From Clostridia bacterium (GTDB taxonomy: Bacteria; Bacillota; Clostridia; Oscillospirales; CAG-272): a stretch of 41,448 nt of DNA. The translations under genes were made by a program, and so were the position numbers. The stretch covers positions 1 to 41,448 of the forward strand of contig JAFVRA010000074.1 in the NCBI GenBank assembly GCA_017504545.1, given 5' to 3'. The notes under the pieces were generated by a model, which did no database searches, was not told where the DNA came from, and saw nothing but the letters and a program-made list of their open reading frames with translations. Within the stretch, counting starts at the first letter, position 1; each line of letters starts with the position of its first letter. Positions 1 to 39,323 of this stretch are shown here, piece after piece.

Positions 1-39
1 GGGGCGATAGCTTTCGCTAATTATTGAATTTCAGACAAA

Positions 40-1680
40 TTAGTCTTCCTTCTTCTTGAGCACAACTGCGCCAAGAACTACTGCAACTACTACTGCAGAA
101 GCGCCGATGATACCGCCGCATCCACCTTCGTTAGCAGGCTCGGTGGGAGCTGCCGTGGGAGCCTCAGTGGGCTTCTCAGTGGGCTTCTCAGTGGGAGCTG
201 CTGTGGGCTCCTCAGTGGGCTCCTCGGTGGGCTCCTCAGTGGGCTGCTCTTCAACGGGCTTCTCAGGAAGCTCGCCATTGTTGATAACCTTGATAGCCTT
301 CTCAAGAGTGCTTGTTGCACTGTCAAGCTCGCTCTGGAGAGTTGCGTTTGCAAGAACTTCCTGCGCTGCAGCTACTCTCTCTGCGTACTTAGCCCAGTCA
401 TAAGCATTAAAGTCTGCTTCTACGAGAAGAGCTGCGAGCTCGAGCATTTCCTCAAGAGCTGCCTTGTTGAGCTCAACTGTAACGAGAGCATTCTTAGCTG
501 CTACGAGAGCGTCGTAAACAGTCTTGATAGTAGTAACATCGGTTGCGTCAGCATTGTTCTTAGCCTCGTCAAGAGCTGCTGCAAATGCAGTCCATGTATC
601 TGCAGTGTAGTCATCCTTAAGGAGCTTTCTGGATTCCTGAACGAGAGCGTTAAGAGCAGTGGTATCAGCCTTAACAGCCTTAGCAGCGCTCATAAGAGCG
701 GTGAGCTTTCTGTCAGCAACACCCTGTGTGAGTGTTTCATCAGCTACTGCTTCCTTTGCAGCTGCAAGAGCAGTCTGGAGAGCAGCGTAAGAGGTAGCTT
801 CGTAGAGATCAGTCTCAGTAAAGGTAGCCTCTACGTAGATGATGTACTCGTTAAGAGCGGTCTTATCAGCGGGCTTAGCAGCCTCCTGTGTGGGAGTCTT
901 GCAATCGTAAAGAACTGCGTTGTTGATAGTGATGGTTCTCTCACCGCCTACTCCGCCACCTCTGTTGTGTGCACCGAATGCTACGAAAGAGCCTTCGGGA
1001 AGGGTGATGAAGGAGTTGGAACCGCTGTCGTTGGTAAGGTATGCCCAGTCGCCGTCCTTTGCAACGTACTGTACATAAACGTCAAGTCCGTCGTAAATGA
1101 TTCTCCAAGAACCGTAGCCTTCGCCATCAGCGAGGGTAGGAACGGGGAAATGGTCGCCGAAGGTAGAGTTGAAGTTACCACTCCAGCTACCCTTGTAAAG
1201 AACGATGTGGGATGCACGTGTACCGTCTTCGTTGTCATGGTCACCATCGCTTGCAAACGCGCCGCCTGCAAAGTAGTGGTCATTACCGTTAATAGCGAAT
1301 ACAACACCTGCGTAACCGGTATCTCTGTTGAGCTTTGCTCTGAACTAGTATACGTAGTAGGTGTCAGCGGTGATAGCGTACTCAGTCTGAGCAGCATAAC
1401 CAAGGTTGTCAGACTTTTCGGTGCTGGTAGTCGAATTAGCTCTTGTAGAGAAAGTGGTACCGTCGATGGTAACGGTGTACTCTTCATTGAACTTCTTGTT
1501 GCTCTCTGCACCGTCGTAGAGAGACTTGAAGGTCAATTCTTCCCACTTAACGGGAATAGCAAGCGAATCCTCAACTGCATAAACGGGCGATTCTGCCTCT
1601 TCTGCAGCAGCAGGAACTATCGCGAGCACACTTGCAAGCATCATTGCAAGAAGCACGAGAATAGAAACTGTCTTTTTCAT
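40..1680 (-). pseudogene. Secreted surface-protein paralog A (signal peptide, beta-rich module, FIVAR-like helical repeats, PTE linker, Cys-Gly/TM C-terminal anchor) interrupted by one in-frame TAG at 1345-1347
   Basis: One minus-strand frame runs from ATG 1680 (GGAGG 6 nt upstream) to TAA at 40-42. I checked triplets 694-1344 and the only stop is TAG at 1345-1347. The N-terminus MKKTVSILVLLAMMLASVLAIVPAAAEE is a signal peptide like those of the two neighbours. The last ~210 aa (DYT.D.W..F..AL..AK repeats, PTEEPTEKPTE linker, GGCGG-hydrophobic-KKKED) match them. Confidence 0.7.
137..246 (-). repeat. 12-nt periodic coding tandem repeat (P-T-E-x linker) in paralog A
   Basis: Iterated units ggctcggtggg / cagtgggcttct / cagtgggctcct encode PTEEPTEEPTEEPTAAPTEKPTEKPTEAPTAAPTEP. 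Confidence 0.7.
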
Positions 1681-1795
1681 AATTTCCTCCATATTTTCTG
1701 TTTGTTTTTTACATTTTCCACGGAAAATGCATTACAGTACATATATTCTATCACATTACATAAAAAAAAGCAATACCTTTTTTAAAATTTACAAA

Positions 1796-1828
1796 CTAAA
1801 AACTGCCCCGCCTTATTCAAGGCGGGGC
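1796..1828 (-). terminator. Rho-independent terminator of paralog B
   Basis: Minus strand reads GCCCCGCC-ttgaataa-GGCGGGGC followed by a T-run. It lies just downstream of the stop at 1863. The right half of the same hairpin is visible at 1-6 for paralog A. Confidence 0.7.
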
Positions 1829-1862
1829 GATAGCTTTCGCTAATTATTGAATTTCAGACAAA

Positions 1863-4187
1863 TCAGTCTTCCTTCTTCTTGAGCACAACTGCGCCAAGAA
1901 CTACTGCAACTACTACTGCAGAAGCGCCGATGATACCGCCGCATCCGCCTTCATCGTCAGTAGGCTCGGTGGGAGCTGCCGTGGGAGCCTCAGTGGGCTT
2001 CTCAGTGGGCTTCTCAGTGGGAGCTGCTGTGGGCTCCTCAGTGGGCTTCTCAGTGGGCTTCTCCTCTTCGGGAGGAGGAGGAAGCTCGCCACCGTTGATA
2101 GCCTTGATAGCTCTTGCAAGAGCCTTAGCTGCATCTGCGACCTGAGAAACGGTTACGTTATCAGCATCCATTACTGCCTGAGCCTCAGCTACCTTTGCAA
2201 CGTAATCTGCCCAATCGTCAGCCGCATAGTCCTCTTCCTTGAGAACAGCTGCGAGAACGAGAAGGTCTGCAAGCTCGGTCTTGTCAGCGGTAACTACTAC
2301 GAGAGCTGCCTTAGCTGCTACGAGTTCATCGTAGATAGCCTTAACGGTCTCAAAGTTTGTAGACTCGTTAGCCTTTGCCGCGGTGAGAGCTGTGTCAAAT
2401 GCTGCCCAAGAATCTTCGGTGTAGTCAGACTTAGCGAGCTTTCTGCAATCAGAGATGAGAGCATTGAGGTTGGTAAGATCAGCTACGAGGCTGTTGATAG
2501 CGTTTATAAGGGCGGTTGTACGGGATGCAACCTCAGTCTTCGGCTTTACGTCTGCGGAGTAGATCTCCTTAGCTCTGTCGAGAGCTCTTACGAGTCTGCC
2601 CCAAGAGGTCTCTGTGAAGTCCTCAGCGGCATAAGCCTCTGCCTGATCGATGTAGAACTTGAGTCCGTCAAGCTCTTCCTGAGTAGCTTCCTCTACTGCA
2701 GGGGGAATGTACTTGGTGAAATCACCCTTGATGATCTTAGCATCCTTAACGGTGCTGTTTACTGCGAGATAGTAGGAATATACGAAGAAGCCCATATTAC
2801 CTGCTGTGGTAAGCTGTGCCTGCTCTTCGATGAACATCCAAGCGCCGTTAGCGTCAAGAACGTAGCTGGAGATCTTGCCTTCAGGGCCGTTGAATACGAG
2901 AAGCATATCTACGAATCCATCAAGATCCTCTGCAAAAGCTGCAGTAAGAGTATCCCACTTAACGTAGTTGCTGTTGTACTTTGTATCACCGTGAGAGATA
3001 GCGGTACGACGCATAGAAACGTCATCGCCAAACGCGGTATTGTGGTTACCGTAGTTGTTGTAGAACTGAGGACGCTCTGCGGTAAGATCGGTTGCCCAAC
3101 CGCCTACGCCGATGGAGTTGTTCTTCGCATCGTCAGCGCTTGCGGGAGTGCCTTCAGCCTTTACCTTATATCTGAGAGTGTATACATCGGTGAGAGCAGC
3201 AGGAAGACCTGCAACCTCGCTACCCCACATATTAACTGTCTTGTCGGTTCCGTTTGCCTTACCCTTGATGGTAACAGACTTACCATCGTTGCTTACGATG
3301 TACTCCATGTTGCCCTTGCTTGCAGCAAGCTCAGCGGGTGCGAATACGTCGTCGCCCTTGAAGTTGAAGGTATAGAGCACGTCTCCGTCAACTGCGGTTG
3401 CGGGATCCTTAACGAGAGCTGCCTCGTAAAGCTCGAGCTCATAAACCGCGTACTTACCCTTGGATGCACCCTCAACGGTATCAACACCAACGAGGATGTA
3501 GTCAACTGTCATAACGGGGAAATCGCCGCCTGTAACGGCTGCCTTCTGGTCACCCTCGGTAATAACGTTGTACTGAAGGTCGTCGCCGGGTGCCATCTCG
3601 TAAAGGAGTACGGGATCAGCATAGCAATATGTGTTGGCCACATACTTCTTCTCTTCGGTGGAAGCCTTTACTGCCTCGATCTTTGCGGGATCTACAACAG
3701 CACCGTAGATGGTAACTCTTGAGATATCGTCCCTACTGTCAAGACCGCTGGATACCCAGATCTTAAATCCATCAACAGTTACGGATTCCTTGAAGCTATA
3801 GCCGAAGATGTGGTCGTGAGTTACGGAAGTACCGTCAGCAAGGTCCATAGTTGCGCAATCCTGGCCGTACTGGTGGCTCATACCGCCCGAGAACTTAACG
3901 CCGTCGGTTGCACTTGCGGAGCCGCTACCGGAGTTCTGACCACGTCTGAGGGAAGGACCCTTATCAGTTATCGGCCATGTTTCGCCGTTAGCTGCGATGT
4001 AGTAATGATAGTCAAAATAAAATACGTTACCCTTTCCGTCGAACTGATAGTTAGCTGCATCAGCATCAGAAAAGGCTACGTTCTTGCGCTCGGGAGCTGC
4101 AGCTTCTTCAGCCGCTGCGGGAATGATTGCAAGAACGGATGCAAGCATCATAGCGATGAGCACCAGAATAGAAATCGTTCTTTTCAT
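1863..4187 (-). CDS. Secreted surface-protein paralog B (signal peptide, two beta-sandwich-like modules, three FIVAR-like helical repeats, PTE linker, Cys-Gly/TM anchor)
   Basis: ORF 1863..4364 trimmed to ATG 4187, which is preceded by GGAGG. Signal peptide MKRTISILVLIAMMLASVLAIIPAAAEE. Repeated Y/DYTE.SW..F..AL..AK motifs. Ends PTEPTDDEGGCGGIIGASAVVVAVVLGAVVLKKKED. Confidence 0.85.
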   Translation of the reverse strand: MKRTISILVLIAMMLASVLAIIPAAAEEAAAPERKNVAFSDADAANYQFDGKGNVFYFDYHYYIAANGETWPITDKGPSLRRGQNSGSGSASATDGVKFSGGMSHQYGQDCATMDLADGTSVTHDHIFGYSFKESVTVDGFKIWVSSGLDSRDDISRVTIYGAVVDPAKIEAVKASTEEKKYVANTYCYADPVLLYEMAPGDDLQYNVITEGDQKAAVTGGDFPVMTVDYILVGVDTVEGASKGKYAVYELELYEAALVKDPATAVDGDVLYTFNFKGDDVFAPAELAASKGNMEYIVSNDGKSVTIKGKANGTDKTVNMWGSEVAGLPAALTDVYTLRYKVKAEGTPASADDAKNNSIGVGGWATDLTAERPQFYNNYGNHNTAFGDDVSMRRTAISHGDTKYNSNYVKWDTLTAAFAEDLDGFVDMLLVFNGPEGKISSYVLDANGAWMFIEEQAQLTTAGNMGFFVYSYYLAVNSTVKDAKIIKGDFTKYIPPAVEEATQEELDGLKFYIDQAEAYAAEDFTETSWGRLVRALDRAKEIYSADVKPKTEVASRTTALINAINSLVADLTNLNALISDCRKLAKSDYTEDSWAAFDTALTAAKANESTNFETVKAIYDELVAAKAALVVVTADKTELADLLVLAAVLKEEDYAADDWADYVAKVAEAQAVMDADNVTVSQVADAAKALARAIKAINGGELPPPPEEEKPTEKPTEEPTAAPTEKPTEKPTEAPTAAPTEPTDDEGGCGGIIGASAVVVAVVLGAVVLKKKED
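1963..2062 (-). repeat. 12-nt periodic coding tandem repeat (P-T-E-x linker) in paralog B
   Basis: Same cagtgggcttct / ggtgggagctgc units as in A. Encodes EEKPTEKPTEEPTAAPTEKPTEKPTEAPTAAPTEP. Confidence 0.7.
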
Positions 4188-4254
4188 TGTTTTTCCTCCA
4201 AAAAAGTGTGTAAGTTCGGACCGCAAGCGTTGCCTGCGATACCTCCTTGTGTTA

Positions 4255-4283
4255 ATTCTACCACAAAACAAATTCATTTTCAA
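4255..4283 (-). promoter_or_regulatory. SigmaA-type promoter of paralog B
   Basis: Minus strand reads TTGAAA-N17-TAGAAT with a TG-containing extension (tgtggTAGAAT), ~70 nt upstream of ATG 4187. Confidence 0.45.
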
Positions 4284-4349
4284 GACAAAATTACTCTTCG
4301 GATGTAGAAATTCAAGCCTTTCTTTTGTGTATTTTTCACAAAATATATC

Positions 4350-4383
4350 AAAAAATCGCCCCACCTTCGTTTCAAGGTGGGGC
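4350..4383 (-). terminator. Rho-independent terminator of paralog C
   Basis: Minus strand reads GCCCCACCTT-gaaacg-AAGGTGGGGC followed by a T-run, downstream of the stop at 4419. Confidence 0.7.
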
Positions 4384-4418
4384 TATAGCTTTCGCTAATT
4401 ATTCAAATTCAGACTAAA

Positions 4419-6725
4419 TCAGTCTTCCTTCTTCTTGAGCACGACAGCGCCAAGAACTACTGCAACTACTACTGCAGAAGCACCGATGATACCGCCGCAT
4501 CCGCCTTCGTTAGCAGGCTCGGTGGGAGCTGCCGTGGGAGCTTCGGTGGGCTTTTCTGTGGGCTTCTCTGTAGGAGCTGCTGTGGGCTCCTCAGTGGGCT
4601 CCTCGGTGGGATCCTCAACAGGCTTCTTAGGAAGCTCGCCGCCATTGATAGCCTTGATAGCTCTTGTGATATCCTTAACTGCACTTTCAACGTCGGAAGT
4701 CGTTACACCCTCAGCATCAAATACTGCCTTTGCTGCCGCAAGCTTCTCTGTGAAGGTTGCCCAGTCGTCAGCTGCGTAGTCAGCTTCCTCGAGAAGAGCT
4801 GCAAGCTCAAGAAGCTCGCCGAGCTCGCTCTTATCAGCAGGCGCTACTACGAGAGCTGCCTTAGCTGCTACGAGTGCATCATAGAGAGCCTTAACGTCCT
4901 CGTATGCCACAGACTCGTTGTTCTTTGCCGCATTGAGAGCTGCCTCAAAGGTTGCCCAGGAATCAGCGGTATAATCATCCTTGACAAGTCTTCTGCACTC
5001 GGTAACGAGAGTATTGAGTGCAGATGTATCAGCTTCAAGCTTACCAAGGTTATTTATAAGAGCAACCGTGCGTGACTCGACCTCGGTCTTCGGCTTAACG
5101 TCAGCCGTATAGATCTCCTTTGCACGAGTGAGAGCTCTTACGAGACGGCTCCAAGAGGTTGCGGTATAGTTTGCTTCATCGAGAGCCTCTGCCTGATCGA
5201 TATAAAGCTTAAGTGTCTCAAGCTCCTCAGCGGTAGCTTCCTCAATAGCCTCGGGAACATAGGTCGTATAGTCGCCCTTGTAAACTCTTACATTAGTAAT
5301 GGTGGTATTTACCGTGTTGTAGTAAGCGTAGGATGCGAAGCAGATGTTACCTGCCTTTTCAAGCTTTTCAACCTGCTGAATGATCTGCCATACGCCTGCC
5401 TGGTCGAGAACGTAAGCGGTGATCATCTTTGTAGGACCGTCGAATACTACGAGAACGTCCATAAAGCCATCAGCATCTACTGCATACGCATTGAGAGTAT
5501 CCTCCCACATTACGTAATCAGCAAGCTTAGAGCCGTTGCCACCCCAAGAAATTACGGAACGGCGCATATCGATCTTACCGTCAACGTCAGCCGTTGTGTG
5601 GTTACCGTAGTGGTTGTAGAATTCGGGCTTATCGAGTGTAAGATCAACACCCCAACCGCCGATACCTACCGAGTTGTTCTTTGCCTGACCGGAGGTATAT
5701 CCTTCGCTATTAGATCTCGCCTTATATCTGAAGGAGTAGGTTCTGTCAAGGCTTGCAGTAAGTCCTGCAACCTCGCCACCCCAAAGATTGATAGACTGGT
5801 CCTTTGCGCCTTCTTTAGCCTTAATGGTAACTGTCTTACCGTTATCGCTAACGATATATTCCATTTCGTCCGCACTTGCATTAAGCTTTGCAGGAGTAAA
5901 TGCCTCGTCGCCATTGAAATTAAAGGTGTAGAGGAGATCACCCAGAACTGCGCTGTCGTAATCCTTAACGAGAGGAGCCTCGTAAGCCTCGATCTCATAT
6001 ACTCTGTAATCGCCGCTGGTCAGCTCTGTGCCAAAATCAACGCCGATAAGGATGTAGTCGATAGTAATAGCTTCAAAATCAGCAGCTACAACCGCAGCAG
6101 TCTTATCGCCCTCGGTTTCAGTAGTATCCTGAAGATCCTCACCATCTGCCATCTCAAAAAGGAGAGTGGGAGCTGCGTAGCAGTAATTAAGAGCCTTGTA
6201 CTCACCTGCGGTTGCCGCTGCCTCAACCTTTGCGGGATCTACAACAGCGCCGTAAACGGTAACCTTGTTGATAGGTGTCTTCTCAGCGGTAGCGGCCCAG
6301 AGCTTGAAGCCGTCGATAGTTACGGATTCCTTGAAGCTGTAACCGAAAATATGGTTGTGAGTAACGCTTGTTCCGTCGTCAAGCTCAAGAGTAGCACCGT
6401 TAGAGCTGAAATCGTGGTCCATACCGCCGCTGAACTTAACGCCGTCGCTAACGCTTGCAGAGCCGCCGCCGTTGTTATTGCCGTGTCTCATGGATGGGCC
6501 CTTGTCTGTTATCGGCCATGTCTGACCTCTTGCGGCCGTGTAATAGTGATAGTCGAAATAAAATACGTTGCCTTCGCCTGCAAACTGTGTGTCTGCGGCA
6601 GTAGGACTACAATACATTACGTTCTTGCGAGCAGGAGCTGCTTCTTCAGCCGTTGCGGGAAGAATAGCAAGAACAGATGCAAGCATCATTGCGATGAGCA
6701 CCAAAATAGAAATTGTTCTTTTCAT
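4419..6725 (-). CDS. Secreted surface-protein paralog C (colinear with B)
   Basis: ORF 4419..6764 trimmed to ATG 6725 with GGAGG upstream. Signal peptide MKRTISILVLIAMMLASVLAILPATAEE. Colinear with B and roughly two-thirds identical by eye (NVFYFDYHYY, DGTSVTH.HIFGYSFKESVT.DGFK, TVYGAVVDPAK). Same C-terminal GGCGG-TM-KKKED. Confidence 0.85.
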   Translation of the reverse strand: MKRTISILVLIAMMLASVLAILPATAEEAAPARKNVMYCSPTAADTQFAGEGNVFYFDYHYYTAARGQTWPITDKGPSMRHGNNNGGGSASVSDGVKFSGGMDHDFSSNGATLELDDGTSVTHNHIFGYSFKESVTIDGFKLWAATAEKTPINKVTVYGAVVDPAKVEAAATAGEYKALNYCYAAPTLLFEMADGEDLQDTTETEGDKTAAVVAADFEAITIDYILIGVDFGTELTSGDYRVYEIEAYEAPLVKDYDSAVLGDLLYTFNFNGDEAFTPAKLNASADEMEYIVSDNGKTVTIKAKEGAKDQSINLWGGEVAGLTASLDRTYSFRYKARSNSEGYTSGQAKNNSVGIGGWGVDLTLDKPEFYNHYGNHTTADVDGKIDMRRSVISWGGNGSKLADYVMWEDTLNAYAVDADGFMDVLVVFDGPTKMITAYVLDQAGVWQIIQQVEKLEKAGNICFASYAYYNTVNTTITNVRVYKGDYTTYVPEAIEEATAEELETLKLYIDQAEALDEANYTATSWSRLVRALTRAKEIYTADVKPKTEVESRTVALINNLGKLEADTSALNTLVTECRRLVKDDYTADSWATFEAALNAAKNNESVAYEDVKALYDALVAAKAALVVAPADKSELGELLELAALLEEADYAADDWATFTEKLAAAKAVFDAEGVTTSDVESAVKDITRAIKAINGGELPKKPVEDPTEEPTEEPTAAPTEKPTEKPTEAPTAAPTEPANEGGCGGIIGASAVVVAVVLGAVVLKKKED
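4516..4614 (-). repeat. 12-nt periodic coding tandem repeat (P-T-E-x linker) in paralog C
   Basis: ggtgggagc / ggtgggctt / cagtgggctcc units encode PTEEPTEEPTAAPTEKPTEKPTEAPTAAPTEP. Confidence 0.7.
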
Positions 6726-6790
6726 TGTTTTCCTCCAAATAAAAATGTGTCTGCCAGATCGCATGCTATTCTGCGATAAGCTTATACATT

Positions 6791-6819
6791 ATTTTACCAT
6801 ATTCTCAGATCGTTTTCAA
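6791..6819 (-). promoter_or_regulatory. SigmaA-type promoter of paralog C
   Basis: Minus strand reads TTGAAA-N17-TAAAAT, ~65 nt upstream of ATG 6725. Confidence 0.45.
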
Positions 6820-6883
6820 CACCAAAATCACAATGTAACGTAGAAAATCAATCCTCGTTTTTGTGCATTATTAACAAAAAACA

Positions 6884-6924
6884 ACAAAAAAACGGCGCAA
6901 AAGCATATTTTCGCGCCGTTTTTT
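6884..6924. terminator. Bidirectional hairpin terminator downstream of the P-loop ATPase gene
   Basis: CGGCGC...GCGCCG stem flanked by an A-run and a T-run (aaaaaaacggcgc...gcgccgttttttt). Confidence 0.6.
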
Positions 6925-6929
6925 TCTCG

Positions 6930-8024
6930 TTACTTCTCCTCAATCATATCGAGCACTCGTGCCGCAAGGCTCTCGCAGTATCTGCTCTCTGCTTCGAAAT
7001 CCATGCACTCGCCGTATATCCTCTCAAGCTCAAAGTGCGCCTCTCCCGCCTCCGCGAGTCTCTCGCACGCATACTCCAAAAGCCCGTCGTACAAGCGCCT
7101 GTCTGCGCGGAATTCAGCCCTTGCGACACGCGCCTGTGCAGATGAGTGAGAAAAGCTGAAAAATCTCTTCATATTTATTTTGCTCTCTGCCTCACCTACG
7201 CCGACAACGAAGCAGGTACCGCTCTCCTCGAACAAAACAGCATCGGGTACGTCGGTGCTCACAGGGTCAAACGAGACTCGCACGCGGCAGCCCTTGCGCC
7301 TTGCCTCGTCTATGAGCGCAGATATGAAAAGTCCGCCTGCACAGTAGCAGTCACTCACAGATACCAGCCGCTTTGCCTCTTTCTCGTAAGTGTCAAGGCT
7401 GTATCTGCCCTTCATTCCAACAGAGGAACGAATGCCTACCTCCAAGGAATAGCCACTTCCGTCGGGTATCGACGCCACCGCTCTCGCCGCCGCTCTGCGA
7501 AGCTTATCGCTCTTGACGTATCGGCACATAAGCTCCCTGCTCCGTCTGTCGAGTGCCAAGGCGGCTTCAAGATACCTATAAGCACCGCGGTAGCACTCGC
7601 CCTTTCTCGCGCTCAACTCGGCTATCCTATCCTTTTGCGCAGAAAGTGCACGAGAGTCCCAGAAAAGACCCGTATCCACTATCTCGTCTGTCGCCCCCGC
7701 AAGCTCGGGCTCAAGTATATGCGGAGCGGTGGAATCCACCAGCGCTACCCGACCGTCTATGACTATGCCATCAAGCGATGTATAGTCGGACGAGCAATAA
7801 TAATACTCCACGCGATGTCCGTGTTCACTCGCGTACTCCGCTACCCGTCGCATAAGCGTGCTCTTGCCGCTTCCCGCGCCCCCCTTGATAAGATAGCGCC
7901 GCAAAAGCTTCTCTGGGGAGAATATTTCCCTGTAGAAGCTTTTGAAGCCTTCTCCGCTGTTTGCCGCAGCAAAAAACGCCCTCGTTCTCTCGTTTTTTAT
8001 CCTTACGTGCTCATTCTCATCCAT
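6930..8024 (-). CDS. Uncharacterised P-loop NTPase
   Basis: ORF 6930..8147 trimmed to ATG 8024 (GGAGGG 6 nt upstream). Walker A is LIKGGAGSGKSTLMRRV. No other motif I can name. Confidence 0.7.
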   Translation of the reverse strand: MDENEHVRIKNERTRAFFAAANSGEGFKSFYREIFSPEKLLRRYLIKGGAGSGKSTLMRRVAEYASEHGHRVEYYYCSSDYTSLDGIVIDGRVALVDSTAPHILEPELAGATDEIVDTGLFWDSRALSAQKDRIAELSARKGECYRGAYRYLEAALALDRRSRELMCRYVKSDKLRRAAARAVASIPDGSGYSLEVGIRSSVGMKGRYSLDTYEKEAKRLVSVSDCYCAGGLFISALIDEARRKGCRVRVSFDPVSTDVPDAVLFEESGTCFVVGVGEAESKINMKRFFSFSHSSAQARVARAEFRADRRLYDGLLEYACERLAEAGEAHFELERIYGECMDFEAESRYCESLAARVLDMIEEK

Positions 8025-8156
8025 AGTAACCCTCCTATCGCAAGGCGTACCAGCCTCTGCAATAAGAATATGCATCTGCCACCCGTGTGGTGAAAAAAGT
8101 GATGCGGCAAAGCGCAAAAAAGCACGTGGCAAAGCGCTATGCCGCATATATTCCGA

Positions 8157-8726
8157 TCATCTTTCTATTATTTTGACGTTTGTAGGCATAATGCCCGCCT
8201 GCTCGTAGACGATCTCGTTTATCTGCGAGATCTGAGACGCCTGAAGACCGTCGCTCCTTACGACGATGCTTGCGCTCTCTCCGCTGATGACCGCCACGCA
8301 CTCCTCAAAGCCCTTGGCAACGATGAGAGTCTCGATATTTGCCTCTGCCTCCATCACGCGAGCGAGGTTATTGATCTCGGCAAGCGCCTCGTTCTTTGCG
8401 GTCTCTGTCGCTGAATCGTTGTCAACTACCGACTGAAGTACCTCAAGAGCCTCGTCGCGATTTCGCTGACGGCTGAGCTGAACGGTCGAGAAATAGCTGT
8501 CGGTGTTATTTGCATCGGTGCCCGTGGGGGTGCTGTCGGTAGAATCGGGCTTGAGTCCTGTGCCCTGACTATAATCAAAGCCCTTGTCGTCAGCACCGCC
8601 AAATATGCTGATAGCCACGATCAACGCCACCGCAACGACAACGAAGGCGCCTGCTATCATCATATTTTTCTTTCCTACCTTGCGGCAGAATCCCGTGAAT
8701 TTTTCCTTTAGTTTTTCCATTTTCAT
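8157..8726 (-). CDS. spoIIIAH: Stage III sporulation protein AH
   Basis: 189 aa with an N-terminal TM. The C-terminus ...EANIETLIVAKGFEECVAVISGESASIVVRSDGL..QISQINEIVYEQAGI is typical of SpoIIIAH. Last gene in the conserved AA-AH order. Confidence 0.85.
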   Translation of the reverse strand: MKMEKLKEKFTGFCRKVGKKNMMIAGAFVVVAVALIVAISIFGGADDKGFDYSQGTGLKPDSTDSTPTGTDANNTDSYFSTVQLSRQRNRDEALEVLQSVVDNDSATETAKNEALAEINNLARVMEAEANIETLIVAKGFEECVAVISGESASIVVRSDGLQASQISQINEIVYEQAGIMPTNVKIIER

Positions 8727-9850: not shown

Positions 9851-10995
9851 CACGCCACCGCCACCACAGTCTGTGTGAATATACAAAGCGAGAGGACAAA
9901 GGTGACCGCAACTCCGCTTATGACCGCAAGCATACATCCGTAGACCTCGCCGAGATTTTCAAGCAATCTCGCCTCGGCAGGACAGCCGAGGATATCGGCA
10001 AGACCTCCCGTAAGCAAAAAAACGAAGCGGGTGAGCAGCACCGAAAGCCCCACGGGCAAAAGCAGCAGAAGGATCATAATTATCCCACCGACGCCGAGAA
10101 CGCTTTTCAGATACGTGACTCCCCCTGCCACCGTGCGTAATGTCTCTCCTACTCCACCGCCAAGCACGGGAATAACGCTTCCGCTTACGAGACGCGCGGT
10201 GCGCGCCGTGGTACTGTCCGCCGCCGAGCTTATGGCGGTCTGCGCCGACATTGAGGACAGAAGCACGGTCATAATTAGCCCGAGGAAAAATCCGTAGATC
10301 TTTTTTATCGCGGCGAGAAGTCTGCCTGTCCTCATCTCATCTGACAACGCGTCGCAGAGACCGAGAATGCTCATTATCGCGGCTACCGGTATTATGCTTT
10401 TAGCGAAAAGCTTGTTGCATATACCGAGAGCGAGATAAAAAGACGCGCTTCCGCTCGCGGCGGTACTGACGTTGCCCCCCATCGCCCACACGCTCGCGGT
10501 TATCGGTATCATTCCCTCCATAAGCGAGCTCACCGATGAAAAGAAGCGCTCGATAGCCTCAAAATGCGAGTACTGAGCGTATATTACGCTGACGAATAGC
10601 GCGCCCGACGAGCAAAATCGCACTGCCGAGCCGAGCGCACCGTTGCCAATAGACGCGCCCGCCGAGGAAAATACCGCTCCGAGCACGAGTATCGCGCATA
10701 TTCCGCACGCCAGCTTCAGCGCTCCCTCAAGCTCTATCCCGAACACTCTCGCTATCTCCCCGAGAATATATTCAGCACCACTCATCTCCTCCACCGCCTC
10801 ACCAAAGCTCTGGCTGCTGTCAAGCGCGCCGTCGGGCAGGCGCTCTGCAGACTCGGGCGGAATGCTCTCAAAAAAGTCGCTCCAGAGCTTCTCGTCGCTC
10901 TCTATCGCTTGTCCCTCCGCCGATATCTCGAAGATGCAAAAAAGCGCGAGTACCATTGCAAACATTAGGGTACCGAGCGTTTTTAATACTCTCAT
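9850..10995 (-). CDS. spoIIIAE: Stage III sporulation protein AE (polytopic membrane protein)
   Basis: 381 aa with a signal-like N-terminus and many hydrophobic segments. Lies between AD and AF. Confidence 0.85.
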   Translation of the reverse strand: MRVLKTLGTLMFAMVLALFCIFEISAEGQAIESDEKLWSDFFESIPPESAERLPDGALDSSQSFGEAVEEMSGAEYILGEIARVFGIELEGALKLACGICAILVLGAVFSSAGASIGNGALGSAVRFCSSGALFVSVIYAQYSHFEAIERFFSSVSSLMEGMIPITASVWAMGGNVSTAASGSASFYLALGICNKLFAKSIIPVAAIMSILGLCDALSDEMRTGRLLAAIKKIYGFFLGLIMTVLLSSMSAQTAISSAADSTTARTARLVSGSVIPVLGGGVGETLRTVAGGVTYLKSVLGVGGIIMILLLLLPVGLSVLLTRFVFLLTGGLADILGCPAEARLLENLGEVYGCMLAVISGVAVTFVLSLCIFTQTVVAVA

Positions 10996-11033
10996 TTTTC
11001 GCCTTCCCTTCTCTTTTTTCTACCTCTCTTTGC

Positions 11034-11450
11034 CTATCGGCTCATCCCGAGTATCTCACCCGCGAGCGAGAGAATGTCACTGAGCATCGGCAGAGAAAGC
11101 GAGAAGATAACTATCCGTCCCACGCTCTCCACCCCCGACGCCAAGGTCTGCTCGCCGCAGTCTCTGCAGATATCCGCGCAAAATCTTCCGAGCAGAGCAA
11201 CCCCCAAGCCCTTGAGCATCACCCCGAAGGCATCTGCCGCAAAGCCGTTGCCTGAAGCCGTAGTCGCCACCGCGCGAAGCGCGTCCACGCTCTCGCCGAA
11301 TATAAGCAGAAATATTCCAAAAAGCAGTACCGCGCCGCCTATCCTCAGCGCAAATCCGTATCCGCCCGCAACCCTTCCTATCACAGCAAGGCAGAGCGCC
11401 ACAAGGACTCCGACGCCGCAGGCTCGCATCATTATCTCAAAGCTATCCAT
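11034..11450 (-). CDS. spoIIIAD: Stage III sporulation protein AD
   Basis: 138 aa, four hydrophobic segments. Size and order fit. Confidence 0.8.
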   Translation of the reverse strand: MDSFEIMMRACGVGVLVALCLAVIGRVAGGYGFALRIGGAVLLFGIFLLIFGESVDALRAVATTASGNGFAADAFGVMLKGLGVALLGRFCADICRDCGEQTLASGVESVGRIVIFSLSLPMLSDILSLAGEILGMSR

Positions 11451-11455
11451 AACTC

Positions 11456-11662
11456 TCAGAGTCCGAAAACGCTCTGTACCGTCTCAAGCAGCAAGCCTAT
11501 CTCCTCAACGAGCATAAGCATTACCACCACGATACCCCCGACGGTCACGAGCATCGCCTGCTCGTCCTTTCCCGACTTAGTCAGTATCGAGGATATCACC
11601 GACACCAACACCCCTACGCCTGCTATCTTAAGTACAAGTCCGATATCTATATCCATGTCCAC
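11456..11662 (-). CDS. spoIIIAC: Stage III sporulation protein AC
   Basis: 68 aa, two TM segments (LVLKIAGVGVLVSVISSIL, GGIVVVMLMLV). Size and order fit. Confidence 0.8.
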   Translation of the reverse strand: MDMDIDIGLVLKIAGVGVLVSVISSILTKSGKDEQAMLVTVGGIVVVMLMLVEEIGLLLETVQSVFGL

Positions 11663-11683
11663 CCTTCCTTTTCCTTCTCACAC

Positions 11684-12154
11684 TCACAGCGCGAGTATGA
11701 GCACAGCGAGCAACGCAGACGCCGAAAGCACGAGCGTGAGCTTTTTCTCGATCGGCAGGCGCGAGGCTATATCCCGCTCGCGCTCGCTCATCAGTATCAA
11801 AAATTCCTCGCACCGCCGTACCTGCTCGGTGCGGTAGCTGCTCCCGACGTCCTCTGCAAAATCATAAAAGAGCCTCTCTGCCTCGGCATCAGTTATCTCT
11901 ATCGAGCGGCATAGCTCCAAAAAATCGCTCGGCGGCTCATTGCCCTCGTATCCGCAAAGCGTGAGTATCTCGTGCGGACACCTGCTAAGTATCTCCGCGC
12001 ATGGCATCGAGTAGTTCTCTATCTGCCCCTTAACATATCGCAAAAGGGCGCAAAGTCCTCTTACGACCGCAAGCCTTTTACTGATAGCCTTAAGCCTGTG
12101 TGAGCAGAGGTATATTCCGCTCAGAATAAGGATCAGAGCTCCTACCGCCTTCAA
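11684..12154 (-). CDS. spoIIIAB: Stage III sporulation protein AB (start uncertain)
   Basis: The C-terminal ~156 aa of ORF 11684..12361. The best start is TTG 12154, 12 nt after AAGGAGG, giving (M)KAVGALILILSG..., which resembles the canonical SpoIIIAB N-terminal TM. The alternative ATG 12247 would overlap spoIIIAA by 158 nt. Confidence 0.7.
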   Translation of the reverse strand: MKAVGALILILSGIYLCSHRLKAISKRLAVVRGLCALLRYVKGQIENYSMPCAEILSRCPHEILTLCGYEGNEPPSDFLELCRSIEITDAEAERLFYDFAEDVGSSYRTEQVRRCEEFLILMSERERDIASRLPIEKKLTLVLSASALLAVLILAL

Positions 12155-13115
12155 GTATATCCTCAACCTCCTTACGAGAATGTACGGCGCAATCAAATCC
12201 GCCCCTTGAGATACGGACGCCGAGATAAAGTCCGAATGCTCTAACATCGTGCAAGGAGCGCAACGATGGGCGCCGAAGCAATGCCCCCACCGACTCACCG
12301 TGTGCCGAGGCGATGAGCGGAACACCGCAGTTCTGCGCCTCGCAGATGGCAGAAACGTCATCCTCGGAGCCGATCTCGTCGCAAATGATCACCTCAGGGT
12401 TCATAAACGCTGTCGCTATAGCTATCCCCTGCGCCTTGGGATAGCCTATGAGCACGTCCGCGGAAAGCTCGCTTGATACTGCGTGCGGCGCGAGCTCCTC
12501 ACGCGTATCCACTATGACCGTGCGAAGCGGCGAGGCACCGCAGGAAAGAGCTCTGCCAAGATAGCGCAGCACTGTCGTCTTTCCCTCTGCGGGCGGCGAG
12601 TAGACGAGCACGCCTTCTCCAAGTCGTAAGCTCCGCCGTATGCGAGACAGCACTCTCTCATCAAGCGGCACATCGGCGCACGGCAGACGGATGTTCAACG
12701 AGGATACATCGTAAATGCCGAGTATCCTGCCGCTCTCAGTCGCGGCGCGTCCGCAAACTCCTACTCTGATTCCACCGCCGAGTGACACGAAGCCCTTTAT
12801 GATGCTCTCGCTGTAGCTGTAAAGCGAACCGCCGCACATCTGCTTTAGTATCGGGGCAAGCTCACCCGCACCGATAAAGCTCTCGAGTATGATATTTTTC
12901 TTTCCCTCGCGTGCGCCGACCGTCAGATACACTCGCCGCCCGCCGCGAAGCCTTATCTCCTCTATCTGCCGTCCGCTGACCGATGCAAAATCCCGAAGCT
13001 CAGAGGCAAGTCCGACGGGAAGGAACGGGAGAACACGGAAAAGAGCCTCGCCCTCCGCCCTTGACCCTTGCTCCACCGAGCGATTTAGTTTATTCTGCAA
13101 AATAACAGTCGCCAT
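12090..13115 (-). CDS. spoIIIAA: Stage III sporulation protein AA (AAA-type ATPase)
   Basis: 341 aa. P-loop SPPAEGKTTVLRYL, Walker B VIICDEIG, first gene of the operon. RBS GAGGAAG before ATG 13115. Confidence 0.85.
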   Translation of the reverse strand: MATVILQNKLNRSVEQGSRAEGEALFRVLPFLPVGLASELRDFASVSGRQIEEIRLRGGRRVYLTVGAREGKKNIILESFIGAGELAPILKQMCGGSLYSYSESIIKGFVSLGGGIRVGVCGRAATESGRILGIYDVSSLNIRLPCADVPLDERVLSRIRRSLRLGEGVLVYSPPAEGKTTVLRYLGRALSCGASPLRTVIVDTREELAPHAVSSELSADVLIGYPKAQGIAIATAFMNPEVIICDEIGSEDDVSAICEAQNCGVPLIASAHGESVGALLRRPSLRSLHDVRAFGLYLGVRISRGGFDCAVHSRKEVEDILEGGRSSDPYSERNIPLLTQA

Positions 13116-13207: not shown

Positions 13208-13427
13208 CCTTATTTTTACAGCGACATTTGTGTCGTACCGCAAAATACGGCATTTTTATCAAAATTTTGACACTATATGTTGTGCCGTTCACGGTTTGTT
13301 AATAGTTTTTTAATAATATATTGTTGTAAATTGTATATAAGTATGGTAGAATATTGTATGGTGTATAATGCTGTGCATTTTACAGTTGTATCTATTCACA
13401 TTACATATACTAATTTCGGAGGTATCT

Positions 13428-15287
13428 ATGCTTAAAAACAGTTCTATGCGCCCTGCATACGCGACTGTCGGCTCGCAGAGCAACGGCAGCAAGGTGTCGG
13501 CAAGCGAGTACGTTTCCTTCGCGGCAGGACAGGTAGAGGACGATTTCAACTCCTTTGGAGACACGTCCGCTAAATCAGGCGCATCAGCTCAAAGGCCCAG
13601 ACAGCAGCAGCAAAGAAGACCGCGCCCCTCTAATACCCCCAGAAGAAAAAGCAACCCTCTTTCCAATCTGGATCCTAAGGTAATCATCATCGGCGTGGCG
13701 GCACTCGTTGCGGTTATCCTGCTTATATGTCTTCTCGTTGCGGTGTTCTCCTCTCCCAATAAGGCTATCGAGAAGGAAGACAACGTTTACAAGGTCTATA
13801 TGACCGCGGACGGCGCAAGCTACGGCATCATTTCAAACGGCAAGAAGGTCGAGCACGTATTTGACGGCGAGATCGAGCTTTATCCCGCTAAGGACTACTC
13901 CTTTGCGTACGTATTCGAGGAAGCCATCACCGACGACGGCAACACCGTTACCAGAATGTACATACTCGACGGCAAGGATCTCGATCTCGTTCAGGCTGAC
14001 GCCGACAAGGTCATCGCGTGGGCAGATTACGAGCCCGGTATCGTCTTCAAGGAAGGCGACGTGGTTCAGTTCTACTCCGAGGATGCGTTTGAGGACATCT
14101 CCAGCGACACCTCCGCGTCTAACTTCATAGTATCGGGCGACGCAAGCACGGTAGTATACACCGAGCTTTCGGGCAGAGACCGCGATACCACCACCGTTAA
14201 ATACTTCCGCAACGCAGGATTTAACGACATCGGCGAGACCGAGGGCCTCATTCCCACGGCTATCTCCAACGACGGTACCTACGTTTACGTTTACGACGAG
14301 ACCAATGCACTCTATTACATCGAGGTCTCCAAGCGCGGAGCAAGCTTCGAGCAGAAGCCCATCGTTGCCTCCACCTCTTACACCTACAGCTCTGTCAACG
14401 CGCTCAACGCTGACGGAACCGAGGTAGTATTCAGCTACGTTCACACCAACGGCAAGCTGGTATCTTGGATCTATCAGGTTGGAGACAATAAGCCCGTAGG
14501 CATCGGCGAGGGCGTATTCAAGTACCTCCCCTCCGACAATAAGACCGTATGTCCCGCTTCTCTCATCGACGCTTACTTTACCGCTGAAAAAACGGTAACC
14601 GATGAAGAGGGCAACACCTCTAAGGTAACCTCCACGTACTTCTATGACGGCAAGAGCGCTCGCAAGCTCGCTGACGAGCTCGGTCAGTTCTCCCCCGACG
14701 GTAAGTACTTCTACTACATAGACAAAGAGACGGCTGATTTCGTAAGAGTTCCTCTCGGAAGCAAGAATTTCGAAGAGGACGCTAAGACCGTAGCAAAGGC
14801 TATCGACTCCTTCGTTCTCACCGAGAAGGGCGACCTCTACACCTACAGCAAGCCTACCTCCTCTACAGGCGGCAAGATAGTCTTCAGAAAAGCTTCTGAC
14901 AGCACGTCTAAGGCTGTATCCTCGAGACCCGACTCCGCTTCTATGTTCCTGTGCGGAAGCACGATCTACTTCTCCGAGACCACAAATGGCGAGATCAAGA
15001 TCTACTCCTCTACCGACGGTGCAACCAAGGAAGAGGTAACGTTTAAGAAGGTACTCTTTGAAACTCCTCTCACCATTGAGATGGGCGCAGGTGAAAAGGG
15101 ATATGCTTACTTCGTTGACTCCAACGGAGACACAAAGCTTCTCTACACCTCCAACGGCAAGACCTTTGATATAGTTCTTGACGCTTGCTTCATTCCCGGA
15201 TACGATTCAGGCTTCACTCCTCCCACTACGGACGAGGACGCGACTGAAGGCGCGACAGACGGCGCAACAGACGGCGAGGCTGAATAA
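13428..15287 (+). CDS. Membrane-anchored hypothetical protein (basic Q/R/P-rich cytoplasmic N-terminus, one TM, large beta-rich extracytoplasmic domain)
   Basis: ORF 13368..15287 trimmed to ATG 13428 (GGAGG 7 nt upstream). TM is VIIIGVAALVAVILLICLLVAVF. Recurrent DG..Y.Y / NG...L.Y strands suggest a propeller-like repeat. The acidic tail is DEDATEGATDGATDGEAE. Confidence 0.75.
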   Translation: MLKNSSMRPAYATVGSQSNGSKVSASEYVSFAAGQVEDDFNSFGDTSAKSGASAQRPRQQQQRRPRPSNTPRRKSNPLSNLDPKVIIIGVAALVAVILLICLLVAVFSSPNKAIEKEDNVYKVYMTADGASYGIISNGKKVEHVFDGEIELYPAKDYSFAYVFEEAITDDGNTVTRMYILDGKDLDLVQADADKVIAWADYEPGIVFKEGDVVQFYSEDAFEDISSDTSASNFIVSGDASTVVYTELSGRDRDTTTVKYFRNAGFNDIGETEGLIPTAISNDGTYVYVYDETNALYYIEVSKRGASFEQKPIVASTSYTYSSVNALNADGTEVVFSYVHTNGKLVSWIYQVGDNKPVGIGEGVFKYLPSDNKTVCPASLIDAYFTAEKTVTDEEGNTSKVTSTYFYDGKSARKLADELGQFSPDGKYFYYIDKETADFVRVPLGSKNFEEDAKTVAKAIDSFVLTEKGDLYTYSKPTSSTGGKIVFRKASDSTSKAVSSRPDSASMFLCGSTIYFSETTNGEIKIYSSTDGATKEEVTFKKVLFETPLTIEMGAGEKGYAYFVDSNGDTKLLYTSNGKTFDIVLDACFIPGYDSGFTPPTTDEDATEGATDGATDGEAE

Positions 15288-20364: not shown

Positions 20365-20408
20365 CTTTCTTCTCCTTGTTTTTTAATATTTTTAAAATAA
20401 AAATTCAA

Positions 20409-21848
20409 TTACCCCTCGTAAAAACTATAGCTATATATAACCTCTATCCGAGTTACATATTCCAATTCTGCAAAATTCTTGATGACATCATAATCGGCAT
20501 AAAAGTCTGCCAATGCATTTGATAACGGTTCTTCATCCGTGCAATTTTCATCAGCGTGCGAATAAAAGAAGCGTAGATGAGAGATATAATCTCCCAAGCT
20601 AAGGTGTTCATCGGACAGTTCAGAACTGTATTCATTAAAGAAAGCAGTGTTAAGAGTTATAAGTTTGGTGTCCTCACATGCCTTATACCACTCTTCCTCT
20701 GTGGCAAGATCATAATCACAATAAACAAATATTATAATTTTAGCGGGAACCCAGAATTCATCGTTAAGGTTGCTTTTATCACCTTTACTCTCAGCATAAT
20801 GGCGGAATTGACTCCTTTTATAAAAGCCTACTTTGTCTATTGTTTCTTCTTCATTCTCCATAAAATCAAAGAAGTTCTTCAATTCTTCATCCTTAACAAT
20901 AGCGCTTTCAATAACATCTGCAAACCAATCCACTTTAACCATATCAATATAAGATGTGCCATCATCATGCTCGATAGTCTCATAATGATACGAATCTGTT
21001 ACAAGTTGCATGCCGGTATAATAATCTCCGAGTTCCTTATCGTCATAATCTAAAATAAAGCCGTCTGTAAACCTCTTTTGTGATTTTCTCACATAGTAAT
21101 ACTCGCCGTCCAAGTATCTACAAGGAACCGTCACCCACTCGTGATCATACGCCGTGGTGGAGTAATAAACGGCATTTTCCTCGGACGAATTGAGGTAGAT
21201 AAAGGTCTCGTCAAAGGTATCGGCTGCCTTTGTGTTTACGCCCTCGTTAAACTGAGGCTCATAGGGCTGAAAATGCTCCATAGTCGGCACCGCCGCGTCC
21301 TCTGTCATAATGTCCTTGACGAAGAGCGAGGGATTAATTTGAAAGGCTAACGCCATTTGGAGATCTTCGTACTCTTTTGTAATATCGCCGACGTTTGCAT
21401 ATTTGAGCCAAGTGTATTCGCCGCTCTGCTGACCGTCAGCCGAATACGCGCAAACAAAGTAAGGCTTTGAAGGATCAAACGCGACGTGCAGCGCCTGCTG
21501 TCCGTCTCTTATTGCATCCATTTTGTCTGCCGTTGTGATCGCGGGCATATCGTGGTCAACCTCAAGCTCGTTCAAATATTCAACCAAGGCGATAATAAGC
21601 GCATCCTCGGATTTAAGCTCTGTACCGTTATTGACAACAGGCTCTTCAAAGGGCGGAAGTCCCGACCCCGCCGCGAATGCGGTAGTAACGAGCAAGCTCA
21701 GGCACGCTGCTACGACTATCCATTTTATCAAGCCATGCTTATGCGGCTTTCGCAGATTCTTTTTTCCATTTGCACCTTCCGGTGCTGCCGCAAGGACTAC
21801 GTCGGCGTCAATTCCGCCGAGAGCCTCAAAAATATCTTTATTTTTCAT
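20409..21848 (-). CDS. Single-pass membrane protein co-translated with the sigma factor (putative anti-sigma/sensor)
   Basis: 479 aa. ~40-aa cytoplasmic N-terminus (MKNKDIFEALGGIDADVVLAAA), TM LIKWIVVAACLSLLVTTAFAAG, and a large acidic, Tyr-rich ectodomain with no motif I recognise. ATGA overlap with the sigma gene. Confidence 0.6.
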   Translation of the reverse strand: MKNKDIFEALGGIDADVVLAAAPEGANGKKNLRKPHKHGLIKWIVVAACLSLLVTTAFAAGSGLPPFEEPVVNNGTELKSEDALIIALVEYLNELEVDHDMPAITTADKMDAIRDGQQALHVAFDPSKPYFVCAYSADGQQSGEYTWLKYANVGDITKEYEDLQMALAFQINPSLFVKDIMTEDAAVPTMEHFQPYEPQFNEGVNTKAADTFDETFIYLNSSEENAVYYSTTAYDHEWVTVPCRYLDGEYYYVRKSQKRFTDGFILDYDDKELGDYYTGMQLVTDSYHYETIEHDDGTSYIDMVKVDWFADVIESAIVKDEELKNFFDFMENEEETIDKVGFYKRSQFRHYAESKGDKSNLNDEFWVPAKIIIFVYCDYDLATEEEWYKACEDTKLITLNTAFFNEYSSELSDEHLSLGDYISHLRFFYSHADENCTDEEPLSNALADFYADYDVIKNFAELEYVTRIEVIYSYSFYEG

Positions 21849-39067: not shown

Positions 39068-39147
39068 AAATTCAAATATTTTTTAAAAAAAGTTAAAAAT
39101 TCTATTGATTTTTGTCGAACTATATGATAACATATAATTAACTTAAT

Positions 39148-39302: not shown

Positions 39303-39323
39303 TTAACTTGCATCGGTAATTTT

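Follow-up and report, generated by a model that had tools for sequence, protein, structure and literature searches.

Gene arrangement and transcription signals

The present study concerns a tandem array of surface-protein genes at the start of a 41,448-nucleotide stretch of DNA (hereafter, the window) from an uncultured Clostridia bacterium (GenBank assembly GCA_017504545.1, contig JAFVRA010000074.1, positions 1 to 41,448). The window holds three co-oriented genes of this array, C, B, and A, all on the minus strand, as are all features of the array given below. Gene C (4419–6725) encodes 768 amino acids (aa) in the order signal peptide, module X' (approximately aa 28–250), module Y (approximately 251–515), three FIVAR-like helical repeats, a Pro/Thr-rich (PT) linker, GGCGG, a transmembrane (TM) helix, and KKKED. 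Gene B (1863–4187; 774 aa) has a signal peptide, module X (approximately aa 28–254), Y (approximately 255–520), a FIVAR stalk (approximately 521–700), and a PT linker (701–745), followed by a GGCGG motif with Cys749 (nt 1941–1943), the TM helix (752–769), and KKKED. Gene A (40–1680; 546 codons, with an amber codon inside in this strain) carries a signal peptide, a different module, Z (approximately aa 29–290), a FIVAR-like stalk, a PT linker, and the same anchor as B and C. B and C are colinear, with 63% aa identity. A has the signal peptide and approximately the last 250 aa in common with them, and its centre is unrelated (approximately 35–45% nucleotide identity). The initial annotation had described three co-oriented genes at these positions, with B and C colinear and about two-thirds identical and with A sharing only the signal peptide and the C-terminal part around a distinct centre, a layout that was reproduced by the open reading frames (ORFs) and their translations.

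The same annotation had assigned B and C their own promoters, A only a tentative one, and every gene a hairpin terminator, and the signals located here agree. A consensus scan found the promoters of B (4255–4283, TTGAAA-17-TAGAAT) and C (6791–6819, TTGAAA-17-TAAAAT), both with an extended −10 element (TG before the −10). The candidate for A (1745–1773, TTGCTT-17-TGaTAGAAT) was read from the sequence and stays tentative, falling below the scan threshold with three of six matches in its −35. The intrinsic terminator of B (1805–1828) has a 10-bp stem with 8 GC pairs and a T-run; that of C (4358–4383) is a G+C-rich hairpin with a compensatory G-C to A-U change relative to B's, and the terminator of A is cut off by the window start.

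Exactly 41 nt upstream of the −35 of B lies the palindrome TTTGTGAAAAATACACAAA / TTTGTnAAnAATnCACAAA (TTTGTG-N7-CACAAA; 4324–4342), which recurs with two mismatches exactly 41 nt upstream of the −35 of C (6860–6878). It is followed upstream of both genes by the conserved TTGAWTTTCTAC. The count expected by chance is 0, and the palindrome is absent elsewhere in the window, including upstream of A; it is kept upstream of paralogs in three related genomes (L001, L019, and L020). It is therefore a candidate shared operator for a common regulator of B and C. The 5' untranslated regions (UTRs) of B and C (approximately 4205–4240 and 6745–6775) contain a conserved UAUCGCA-loop-UGCGAU hairpin near the predicted transcript 5' ends, also found in orthologs, with modest folding z-scores (−0.04 to −2.2); it could serve in mRNA stabilisation. 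Together, the palindrome and the hairpin suggest common regulation of B and C.

Homogenisation of the 3' ends

The most conspicuous property of the array is the likeness of its 3' ends. The block in question covers the last ~200 nt of each coding sequence and a 39-nt 3' UTR, and lies at 1–268 in A (NGGELP, PT linker, GGCGG-TM-KKKED, stop, and the 39-nt 3' UTR), at 1816–2091 in B, and at 4358–4644 in C, the latter two with the same contents plus 3' UTR and terminator. By blastn, the A and B blocks are 95.8% identical over 240 nt, with a longest exact run of 86 nt, and the A and C blocks are 93.3% identical over 239 nt. In the 3' UTR, A and B match at 39 of 39 positions and C at 35 of 39. B and C are 89–95% identical in the block, versus 45–89% in segments along the rest of the genes. 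Overall, the last ~240 nt together with the 3' UTR reach 93–96% identity, compared with ~45–75% outside this part. The near-identity claimed earlier for the last ~200 nt of coding sequence and ~45 nt of flank was thus confirmed, with the UTR part set at 39 nt, and the identity profile along the paralogs is not uniform but steps up at the 3' end.

To distinguish conversion from plain divergence, the genes of the window were compared with those of a second genome, L001, according to whether they group by orthology or by genome. In the FIVAR stalk, orthologs were the closest pairs (81% between B of the window and the first L001 gene, 85% between A and the third), with paralogs at 63–70%. In the PT linker, the closest pairs were paralogs of the same genome, at 88–95% in the window and 86–90% in L001, versus 70–82% across genomes. 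Aligned codons 0–180 contained 96 sites specific to an orthogroup and 0 specific to a genome, and the corresponding counts between codon 180 ('NGGELP') and the stop were 5 and 8 (Fisher p = 3e-9 versus upstream). The linker signatures follow the same division, since the three genes of the window carry NGGELP and ...AAPTEKPTEKPTEAPTAAPTEP, and the three of L001 carry NGGV(I/L)P and ...EQPTEKPTEQPTEKPTEQATATEP. Silent differences at codons for the same amino acid fell in the block from 28% to 4.5% for A and B (p = 1e-4) and from 41% to 17% for A and C (p = 0.001).

Strains 98–99% identical to the window provided mosaic alleles: the B genes of P0001 and L020 carry the 'VEEQPTEEPTEEPT' and 'NEGG' of A. 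Between L020 and the window, differences in coding sequence are concentrated in the 3' blocks, where 200-nt bins contain 19 and 11 of them, with 1–3 in most other coding bins of this size, and the largest difference clusters of all are two intergenic spacers. The initial annotation had favoured gene conversion or cassette exchange over plain divergence, and the grouping of the stalk by orthology and of the linker-anchor block by genome, with the drop in silent divergence, upholds that view. These comparisons demonstrate that recurrent gene conversion keeps the 3' ~270 nt (linker, anchor, and 3' UTR) alike within a genome. The switch from orthology to genome, the silent drop, and the mosaic patches are the mark of concerted evolution through short conversion tracts that recur.

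Several observations weigh against this interpretation, and two other explanations of the identity were considered. The silent-site drop between B and C, from 27.5% to 18%, was not significant (p = 0.16), the PT repeats are of low complexity, so that alignment and slippage add noise, and the last ~105 nt (GCG-TM-KKKED) are 90–95% identical between genomes and 95–96% within, so that conversion and selection cannot be separated in that part. Purifying selection on the anchor, together with extreme codon bias and with no DNA exchange between paralogs, would fit the TM-KKKED tail, which is identical in protein and 90–95% identical in DNA even between genomes, and might be helped by the strong codon bias and by the functional terminator contained in the 3' UTR. 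Selection of this kind, however, cannot produce changes that are common to the paralogs of a genome and missing from their orthologs, and the block contains 8 such fixed differences specific to a genome (among them ELP versus V(I/L)P and another PT pattern) against 0 upstream. Nor does it suit mosaic patches that vary among strains 98–99% identical; we consider it improbable. A further caution is that all the data come from short-read metagenome assemblies, whose contigs break at the repeat: the contigs of the window, L014, and L015 end inside or just after the 3' block of A, and the repeat does disturb assembly. That the near-identical ends are themselves an artefact of collapsed or chimeric repeats is nevertheless very improbable, given that L015 is 100% identical to the window, that in L014, from another sample, the B and C blocks show the same differences between paralogs, that the L020 assembly reads through all four of its genes, and that L001 has the same design with its own linker variant. 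Since the repeat breaks short-read assemblies exactly here, metagenome-assembled genomes (MAGs) will tend to lose distal paralogs and to under-represent the family.

Variation of the locus among relatives

The slot of the array is bounded upstream by spoIIIAH and a STAND-like NTPase gene and downstream by ribF, and the window truncates the array. In L020, a 98.3% identical strain, C, B, and A are followed by a fourth paralog (647 aa, FIVAR-Z''-FIVAR) and then by ribF. L001, whose B ortholog is 86% identical, has five genes (one B-like, one Y'-Y, and three Z-type); the close relative L019 has a Y'-Y gene first and then a B-like gene, and the more distant L018 has one gene in the slot. Gene C of the window is of the X'-Y design, and its counterpart in L019 and L001 is Y'-Y, 73% identical from Y to the end with an unrelated first module. 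The head designs among relatives comprise X-Y, Y-Y, Z, X-Z, Y-Z, and X-only. The swapping of N-terminal modules, first proposed from the paralogs of the window, was therefore seen between strains, in the replacement of X'-Y beside the ATPase gene by Y'-Y, and the loci compared held 1, 4, or 5 genes with different heads. The aligned loci demonstrate that head modules have been duplicated, replaced, and re-ordered between strains, and that the copy number changes.

Exact copies of the window proteins are present in NCBI MAGs. At the species level, the closest genomes are MAGs recovered from the colon of goat, the caecum of roe deer, and the rectum of water deer, together with others labelled Eubacteriales and Oscillospiraceae. 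The whole-protein family is tiny, with 16 relatives at E < 1e-30 among 5.8 billion clusters, and these are without informative names. Directly upstream of the array in every related locus lies a gene for a 405-aa P-loop NTPase (6930–8147, minus strand) with weak NPHP3_N / nSTAND matches.

Nonsense allele of gene A and codon use

Gene A contains an in-frame TAG at codon 112 (1345–1347), a GAG to TAG nonsense single-nucleotide polymorphism (SNP) in the context TYYVY*FRAKLNR, the intact form being YVYEF. Because of this codon, the ORF list shows A as two pieces. The coordinates of A in the initial annotation hold, but A is not an intact ORF here, the TAG having been overlooked. The Glu at this position is invariant in 8 of 8 aligned homologous Z modules (E83). 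L015, which is 100% identical to the window over 136–8432, carries the TAG; L014 carries GAG, with 3 mismatches in 14,021 positions relative to the window, and in L020 A is intact at 546 aa. These alleles mark the TAG as a nonsense mutation of very recent origin that still segregates in the population, and A is knocked out in this strain.

The codon use of the array had been called extreme, and the counts agree. The effective number of codons (Nc) is 33–39 in A, B, and C versus 41–60 in most neighbour genes; GTG accounts for 5–7% of their Val codons versus 20%, and TTG and CTG together for 2–5% of their Leu codons. This bias is the strongest in the window except for that of an M18 peptidase gene (Nc 35.3, inside the range of the array). 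In A, no in-frame ATG, GTG, or TTG occurs between 1344 and 694, that is, over the 650 nt after the TAG, in line with the earlier remark on GTG and TTG. We infer high expression of A, B, and C from codon bias alone.

Head modules and stalk

Searches of the whole proteins against Pfam returned FIVAR and the PT repeat only. FIVAR (PF07554, threshold 29.2 bits) was exceeded by B (37.1 bits) and C (32.3 bits), and by the isolated stalk of B with 42.5 bits in 3 stretches, which bears out the initial suggestion of FIVAR-like helices. A gave no Pfam FIVAR match; its stalk is colinear with the stalks of B and C and agrees with them in amino acid at 78/182 and 83/182 codons, respectively. The PT repeat (PF04886, threshold 26.2 bits) was matched at 31.4 bits in A, 27.1 in B, and 28.6 in C. 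In NCBIfam, the stalk aligned to the FIVAR regions of the models for ZmpB, lacto-N-biosidase LnbX, and HypBA2 (E 1e-8 to 1e-14), although at 44–51 bits these matches are far below the family cut-offs of 2500–3000.

When used separately, the X, Y, and Z modules gave no match in Pfam or NCBIfam and none of relevance among PDB sequences at a threshold as loose as E ≤ 10. Because these sequence searches gave nothing, the head assignments rest on predicted folds. An exhaustive HMMER search found approximately 100 clusters with Y and approximately 25 with X; for Z, only a handful of relatives are known. Many Y relatives are short, consisting of signal peptide, Y, linker, and anchor. For Z, word-indexed homolog searches gave 2–3 fragments only, and the other relatives came from the loci and the exhaustive search.

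An AlphaFold model of X and Y (B, aa 28–545, with 105 aligned sequences) reached a mean pLDDT of 82.8, with Y above 90 and X at 75–90, except for the first ~60 residues of X, which were below 50. Among the Foldseek matches of this model were the CBM32-containing AlyQ (3e-8), galactose oxidase (9e-6), and the CBM32 pair of ZmpB (5e-5). These are two-domain alignments with template-modelling scores (TM-scores) of 0.16–0.28 and the sole evidence for a CBM32-like X. Y matched legume lectins and other ConA-like jelly rolls (E ~1e-5, target TM-score 0.5–0.55). Z was modelled on the Z module of P0025, which is 64% identical to that of A, with the two halves of A in the alignment; the model (pLDDT 82.5) is a ConA-like jelly roll and matched the C-terminal jelly roll of a GH43 xylosidase, legume lectins, LamG-like domains, and 3mep/3o12 (E 4e-7 to 5e-5, TM-score 0.5–0.6). 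In a profile comparison, Y and Z were connected through their C-terminal thirds with a probability of 80%.

According to these models, X is probably a CBM32-like module, and Y and Z would be ConA/legume-lectin-like jelly rolls in a resemblance at the fold level only. The LamG-like guess made from the sequence therefore has support for Y and Z as a fold only and finds no match to a family. The accompanying discoidin guess fares less well, since for X it has the CBM32-containing matches of a two-domain model and no Pfam or PDB sequence match. The predicted folds fit lectin or adhesin heads without proving it. Two points count against a more specific reading: the fold matches are weak (TM-score ~0.5, ~10% identity), those of X coming from the two-domain model, and glycan binding by the heads is conjecture.

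C-terminal tail

Every member of the array ends in a linker of Pro, Thr, Glu, and Lys, a G-C-G motif, an 18-residue hydrophobic helix, and KKKED, and the residues before the helix are (N/D)EGGCGG. G748, C749, and G750 of B are invariant in 13 relatives, down to 28% identity; in 40 tails, which were selected for carrying the Cys motif, the Cys is invariant and the flanking Gly residues are at least 90% conserved. GC[GS] is present in 52 of the 106 relatives that end in a TM helix and a basic tail. Others have a sortase-like xPxTG(D), xTFD, or LPTTG at the same position, with xPxTG(D) tails occurring on Y-module relatives. The same type of tail also occurs on unrelated passengers. A CHAP-domain protein of the window (31509–33188, minus strand; peptidoglycan amidase-type) ends in SGCSSS, a TM helix, and RKREE, and several unrelated proteins in the MAG loci end in GCG or GCGGCG tails. 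The tail thus has the form of a Cys-containing tripartite signal, with a motif, a TM helix, a basic C-terminal cluster, and many passengers. In more distant Clostridia MAGs (L013, at 9938–12682 of that locus, L007, L008, and L012), proteins of 900–1500 aa combine the same signal peptide, a FIVAR stalk, and a GCG/GCGGCG tail with quite different repeated head modules.

The tail did not behave as a sortase substrate in the searches for LPXTG and its variants (TIGR01167, NF033846), as no such pentapeptide precedes the TM helix. Rumino_NPXTG (NF033846) scored 13–19 bits against a cut-off of 23.5, over model positions 7–30 only; 19 of the 40 tails weakly matched its TM and basic part, the best at 19.1 bits. 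LPXTG_anchor appeared in 4 of the 40 at E ≥ 0.016. None of the 40 tails reached an NCBIfam cut-off, and no MYXO, Synerg, JDVT, or CGP-CTERM domain model was hit at E ≤ 10, with stray matches to the C-termini of MXAN families (MYXO-CTERM-anchored) at E ~0.03–0.06. The literature search found nothing relevant on a Clostridia Cys-CTERM signal or on this protein family. The tail therefore has the form of a sorting signal while belonging to no curated one.

The invariant Cys before the TM helix may mark a site of processing or lipid attachment. A tentative extension, which we hold to be rather less probable than its negation, is that G-C-G + TM + KKK(E)D forms a new Cys-dependent C-terminal sorting signal of gut Clostridia, a monoderm counterpart of MYXO-CTERM/Synerg-CTERM. 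Weighing against it, no gene for a sorting enzyme (CPBP, sortase, or rhomboid) was found in the window, and a plain C-terminal membrane anchor is the simpler reading of the tail. If a Cys-dependent signal did exist, an intramembrane enzyme would cut the tail at the Cys and might attach a lipid there; the tail would replace the NPXTG signal of sortases, because the two occupy the same exact position on homologous passengers; and selection would act on the homogenised 3' cassette so that every paralog remains a good substrate for this machinery.

Neighbouring genes in the window

The flanks of the array are ordinary chromosome, with the spoIIIA operon, whiA, murB, prfA, a homolog of the gyrase/topoisomerase IV A-subunit, an oxaloacetate-decarboxylase-type operon, and a lysine riboswitch. 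The riboswitch (39142–39308, plus strand; Rfam RF00168, 83.7 bits) stands before a Na+/H+ antiporter-family (NhaC-type) gene (39388–40938). Between whiA and spoIIIAA in all related loci lies a gene for a 639-aa protein without a Pfam match (13368–15287, plus strand), of fairly marked codon bias (Nc 41). The stretch 18292–21848 has a GC content of 35–41% versus approximately 50–55% around it and encodes two proteins, an S8 peptidase of 690 aa and one of 479 aa for which Pfam gave no match; an ECF sigma factor gene (21845–22399) lies directly upstream of this stretch. It may be acquired DNA or an ECF/anti-sigma/protease module.

Proposed organisation of the array

Taken as a whole, the data are best explained by a tandem surface-protein array with variable heads and a 3' cassette homogenised by conversion, to which we assign a probability of about 0.75. 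The array would comprise four genes (C, B, A, and a fourth beyond the window start) between the spoIIIA operon and ribF of an uncultured, spore-forming gut Clostridia bacterium, each its own transcription unit for a secreted, C-terminally anchored surface protein. All are built on one chassis of Sec signal peptide, one or two beta-sandwich heads, three FIVAR-type helical bundles, linker, and anchor. After Sec export, the protein would be retained by the C-terminal helix or by a Cys-linked modification; the Pro/Thr/Glu linker (approximately 35–45 aa) would cross the wall, and the FIVAR stalk would hold the lectin-like heads outward, where they may bind glycans or other surface ligands. Such an array might offer several binding specificities at once, all mounted on the same constant unit for anchoring and display and all highly expressed.

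Programmed antigenic or phase variation, through an expression site with silent cassettes or through invertible promoters with a site-specific recombinase, might also produce heads that vary on an end that does not, chimeras that differ between strains, and a nonsense allele by which one member is turned off. Such a system is unlikely here. Promoter, start codon, signal peptide, and terminator are present separately for each gene, neither a recombinase nor a silent or truncated cassette was found in the window, and the TAG in A is a plain SNP and not the product of repeat-tract slippage. An invertible promoter between C and B was specifically considered and rejected, the strongly diverged L020 spacer aligning in the forward direction with a score of 174 versus 6 when reversed. 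The TAG itself could in principle be decoded, by pyrrolysine or by programmed read-through, leaving A functional in this strain, and the rest of A past the TAG is indeed undamaged and the same as in intact alleles. A recent nonsense SNP accounts for that intact remainder, however, and sister alleles have GAG for the invariant Glu; moreover, murB in the window ends with TAG as its ordinary stop, and no tRNA gene was found in the window, so that decoding is a highly unlikely explanation. A gut Clostridia host and modular, beta-rich proteins with PT linkers might instead call to mind one of the envelope systems already studied in detail, for example the S-layer (SLH) or the scaffold of a cellulosome (cohesin/dockerin). 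This is the least probable of the alternatives, as no S-layer, SLH, cohesin, or dockerin domain was among the Pfam and NCBIfam matches of A, B, C, or their modules: Pfam gave only FIVAR and PT, X, Y, and Z gave nothing at E ≤ 10, and NCBIfam gave nothing above cut-off.

A homogenised array with variable heads would operate by an ordinary mechanism of a known kind, that of tandem adhesin families in which the heads vary, the anchors are conserved, and recombination yields chimeras. The new elements are a protein family with three head modules lacking a curated model, a bounded conversion tract that is clearly demonstrated across genomes, and the Cys-containing tail, which is the most novel lead. 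The locus would be a clean natural example of surface diversification in a gut anaerobe, in which heads are duplicated, swapped, and occasionally knocked out while conversion keeps the display and anchor unit uniform. X, Y, and Z define protein families without Pfam models, those of X and Y spanning roughly 25 to 100 sequence clusters and that of Z only a handful of known relatives, and the tail points to a possible new Clostridia sorting signal outside every curated model.

Comparison with known systems

The Sdr proteins of Staphylococcus aureus (sdrC-sdrD-sdrE) combine IgG-like A domains with SD repeats and a sortase signal of the LPXTG type. Like these tandem Gram-positive adhesins, the array consists of co-oriented paralogs with their own signal peptides, divergent N-terminal domains (ligand-binding in the adhesins), a repetitive, low-complexity wall-spanning region, and a near-identical C-terminal anchor. 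Unlike them, it has heads without Pfam families (X, probably CBM32-like, and ConA-like modules), a FIVAR stalk, a PT(E/K) linker, and G-C-G instead of LPXTG. The Listeria internalin clusters inlGHE / inlC2DE resemble the array in that gene number and chimeric genes vary by strain at a fixed slot, and differ from it in their LRR folds and LPXTG anchors; we know of no homogenised 3' cassette of this kind described for these clusters. The FIVAR-containing surface glycan-active enzymes ZmpB, LnbX, and HypBA2 have a similar helical stalk, and ZmpB has CBM32-type modules next to FIVAR, but the array proteins are without a catalytic domain.

With regard to the tail, the TM helix and basic end resemble positions 7–30 of the 30-position model of Rumino_NPXTG, a Ruminococcus anchor, whereas its NPXTG motif (positions 1–6) is unmatched and G-C-G stands in its place. 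The MYXO-, Synerg-, JDVT-, and CGP-CTERM signals are Cys-containing tripartite signals cleaved by CPBP-family myxosortases, and none is reported from Clostridia (bioRxiv 10.1101/2023.06.07.544157; PMC11980579); the cleavage mechanism of Cys-containing CTERM signals is described in PMC11980579. The tail of the array differs from the MYXO-CTERM class in its Lys-rich basic cluster ending in Glu-Asp, and its host, a monoderm, lacks an outer membrane and a T2SS. It is like that class in its Gly-flanked invariant Cys motif, TM helix, and basic extreme C-terminus, in the Thr/Pro-rich region before the motif, and in its many unrelated passengers, and the doubled GCGGCG of some relatives recalls the GCGC of MYXO-CTERM.

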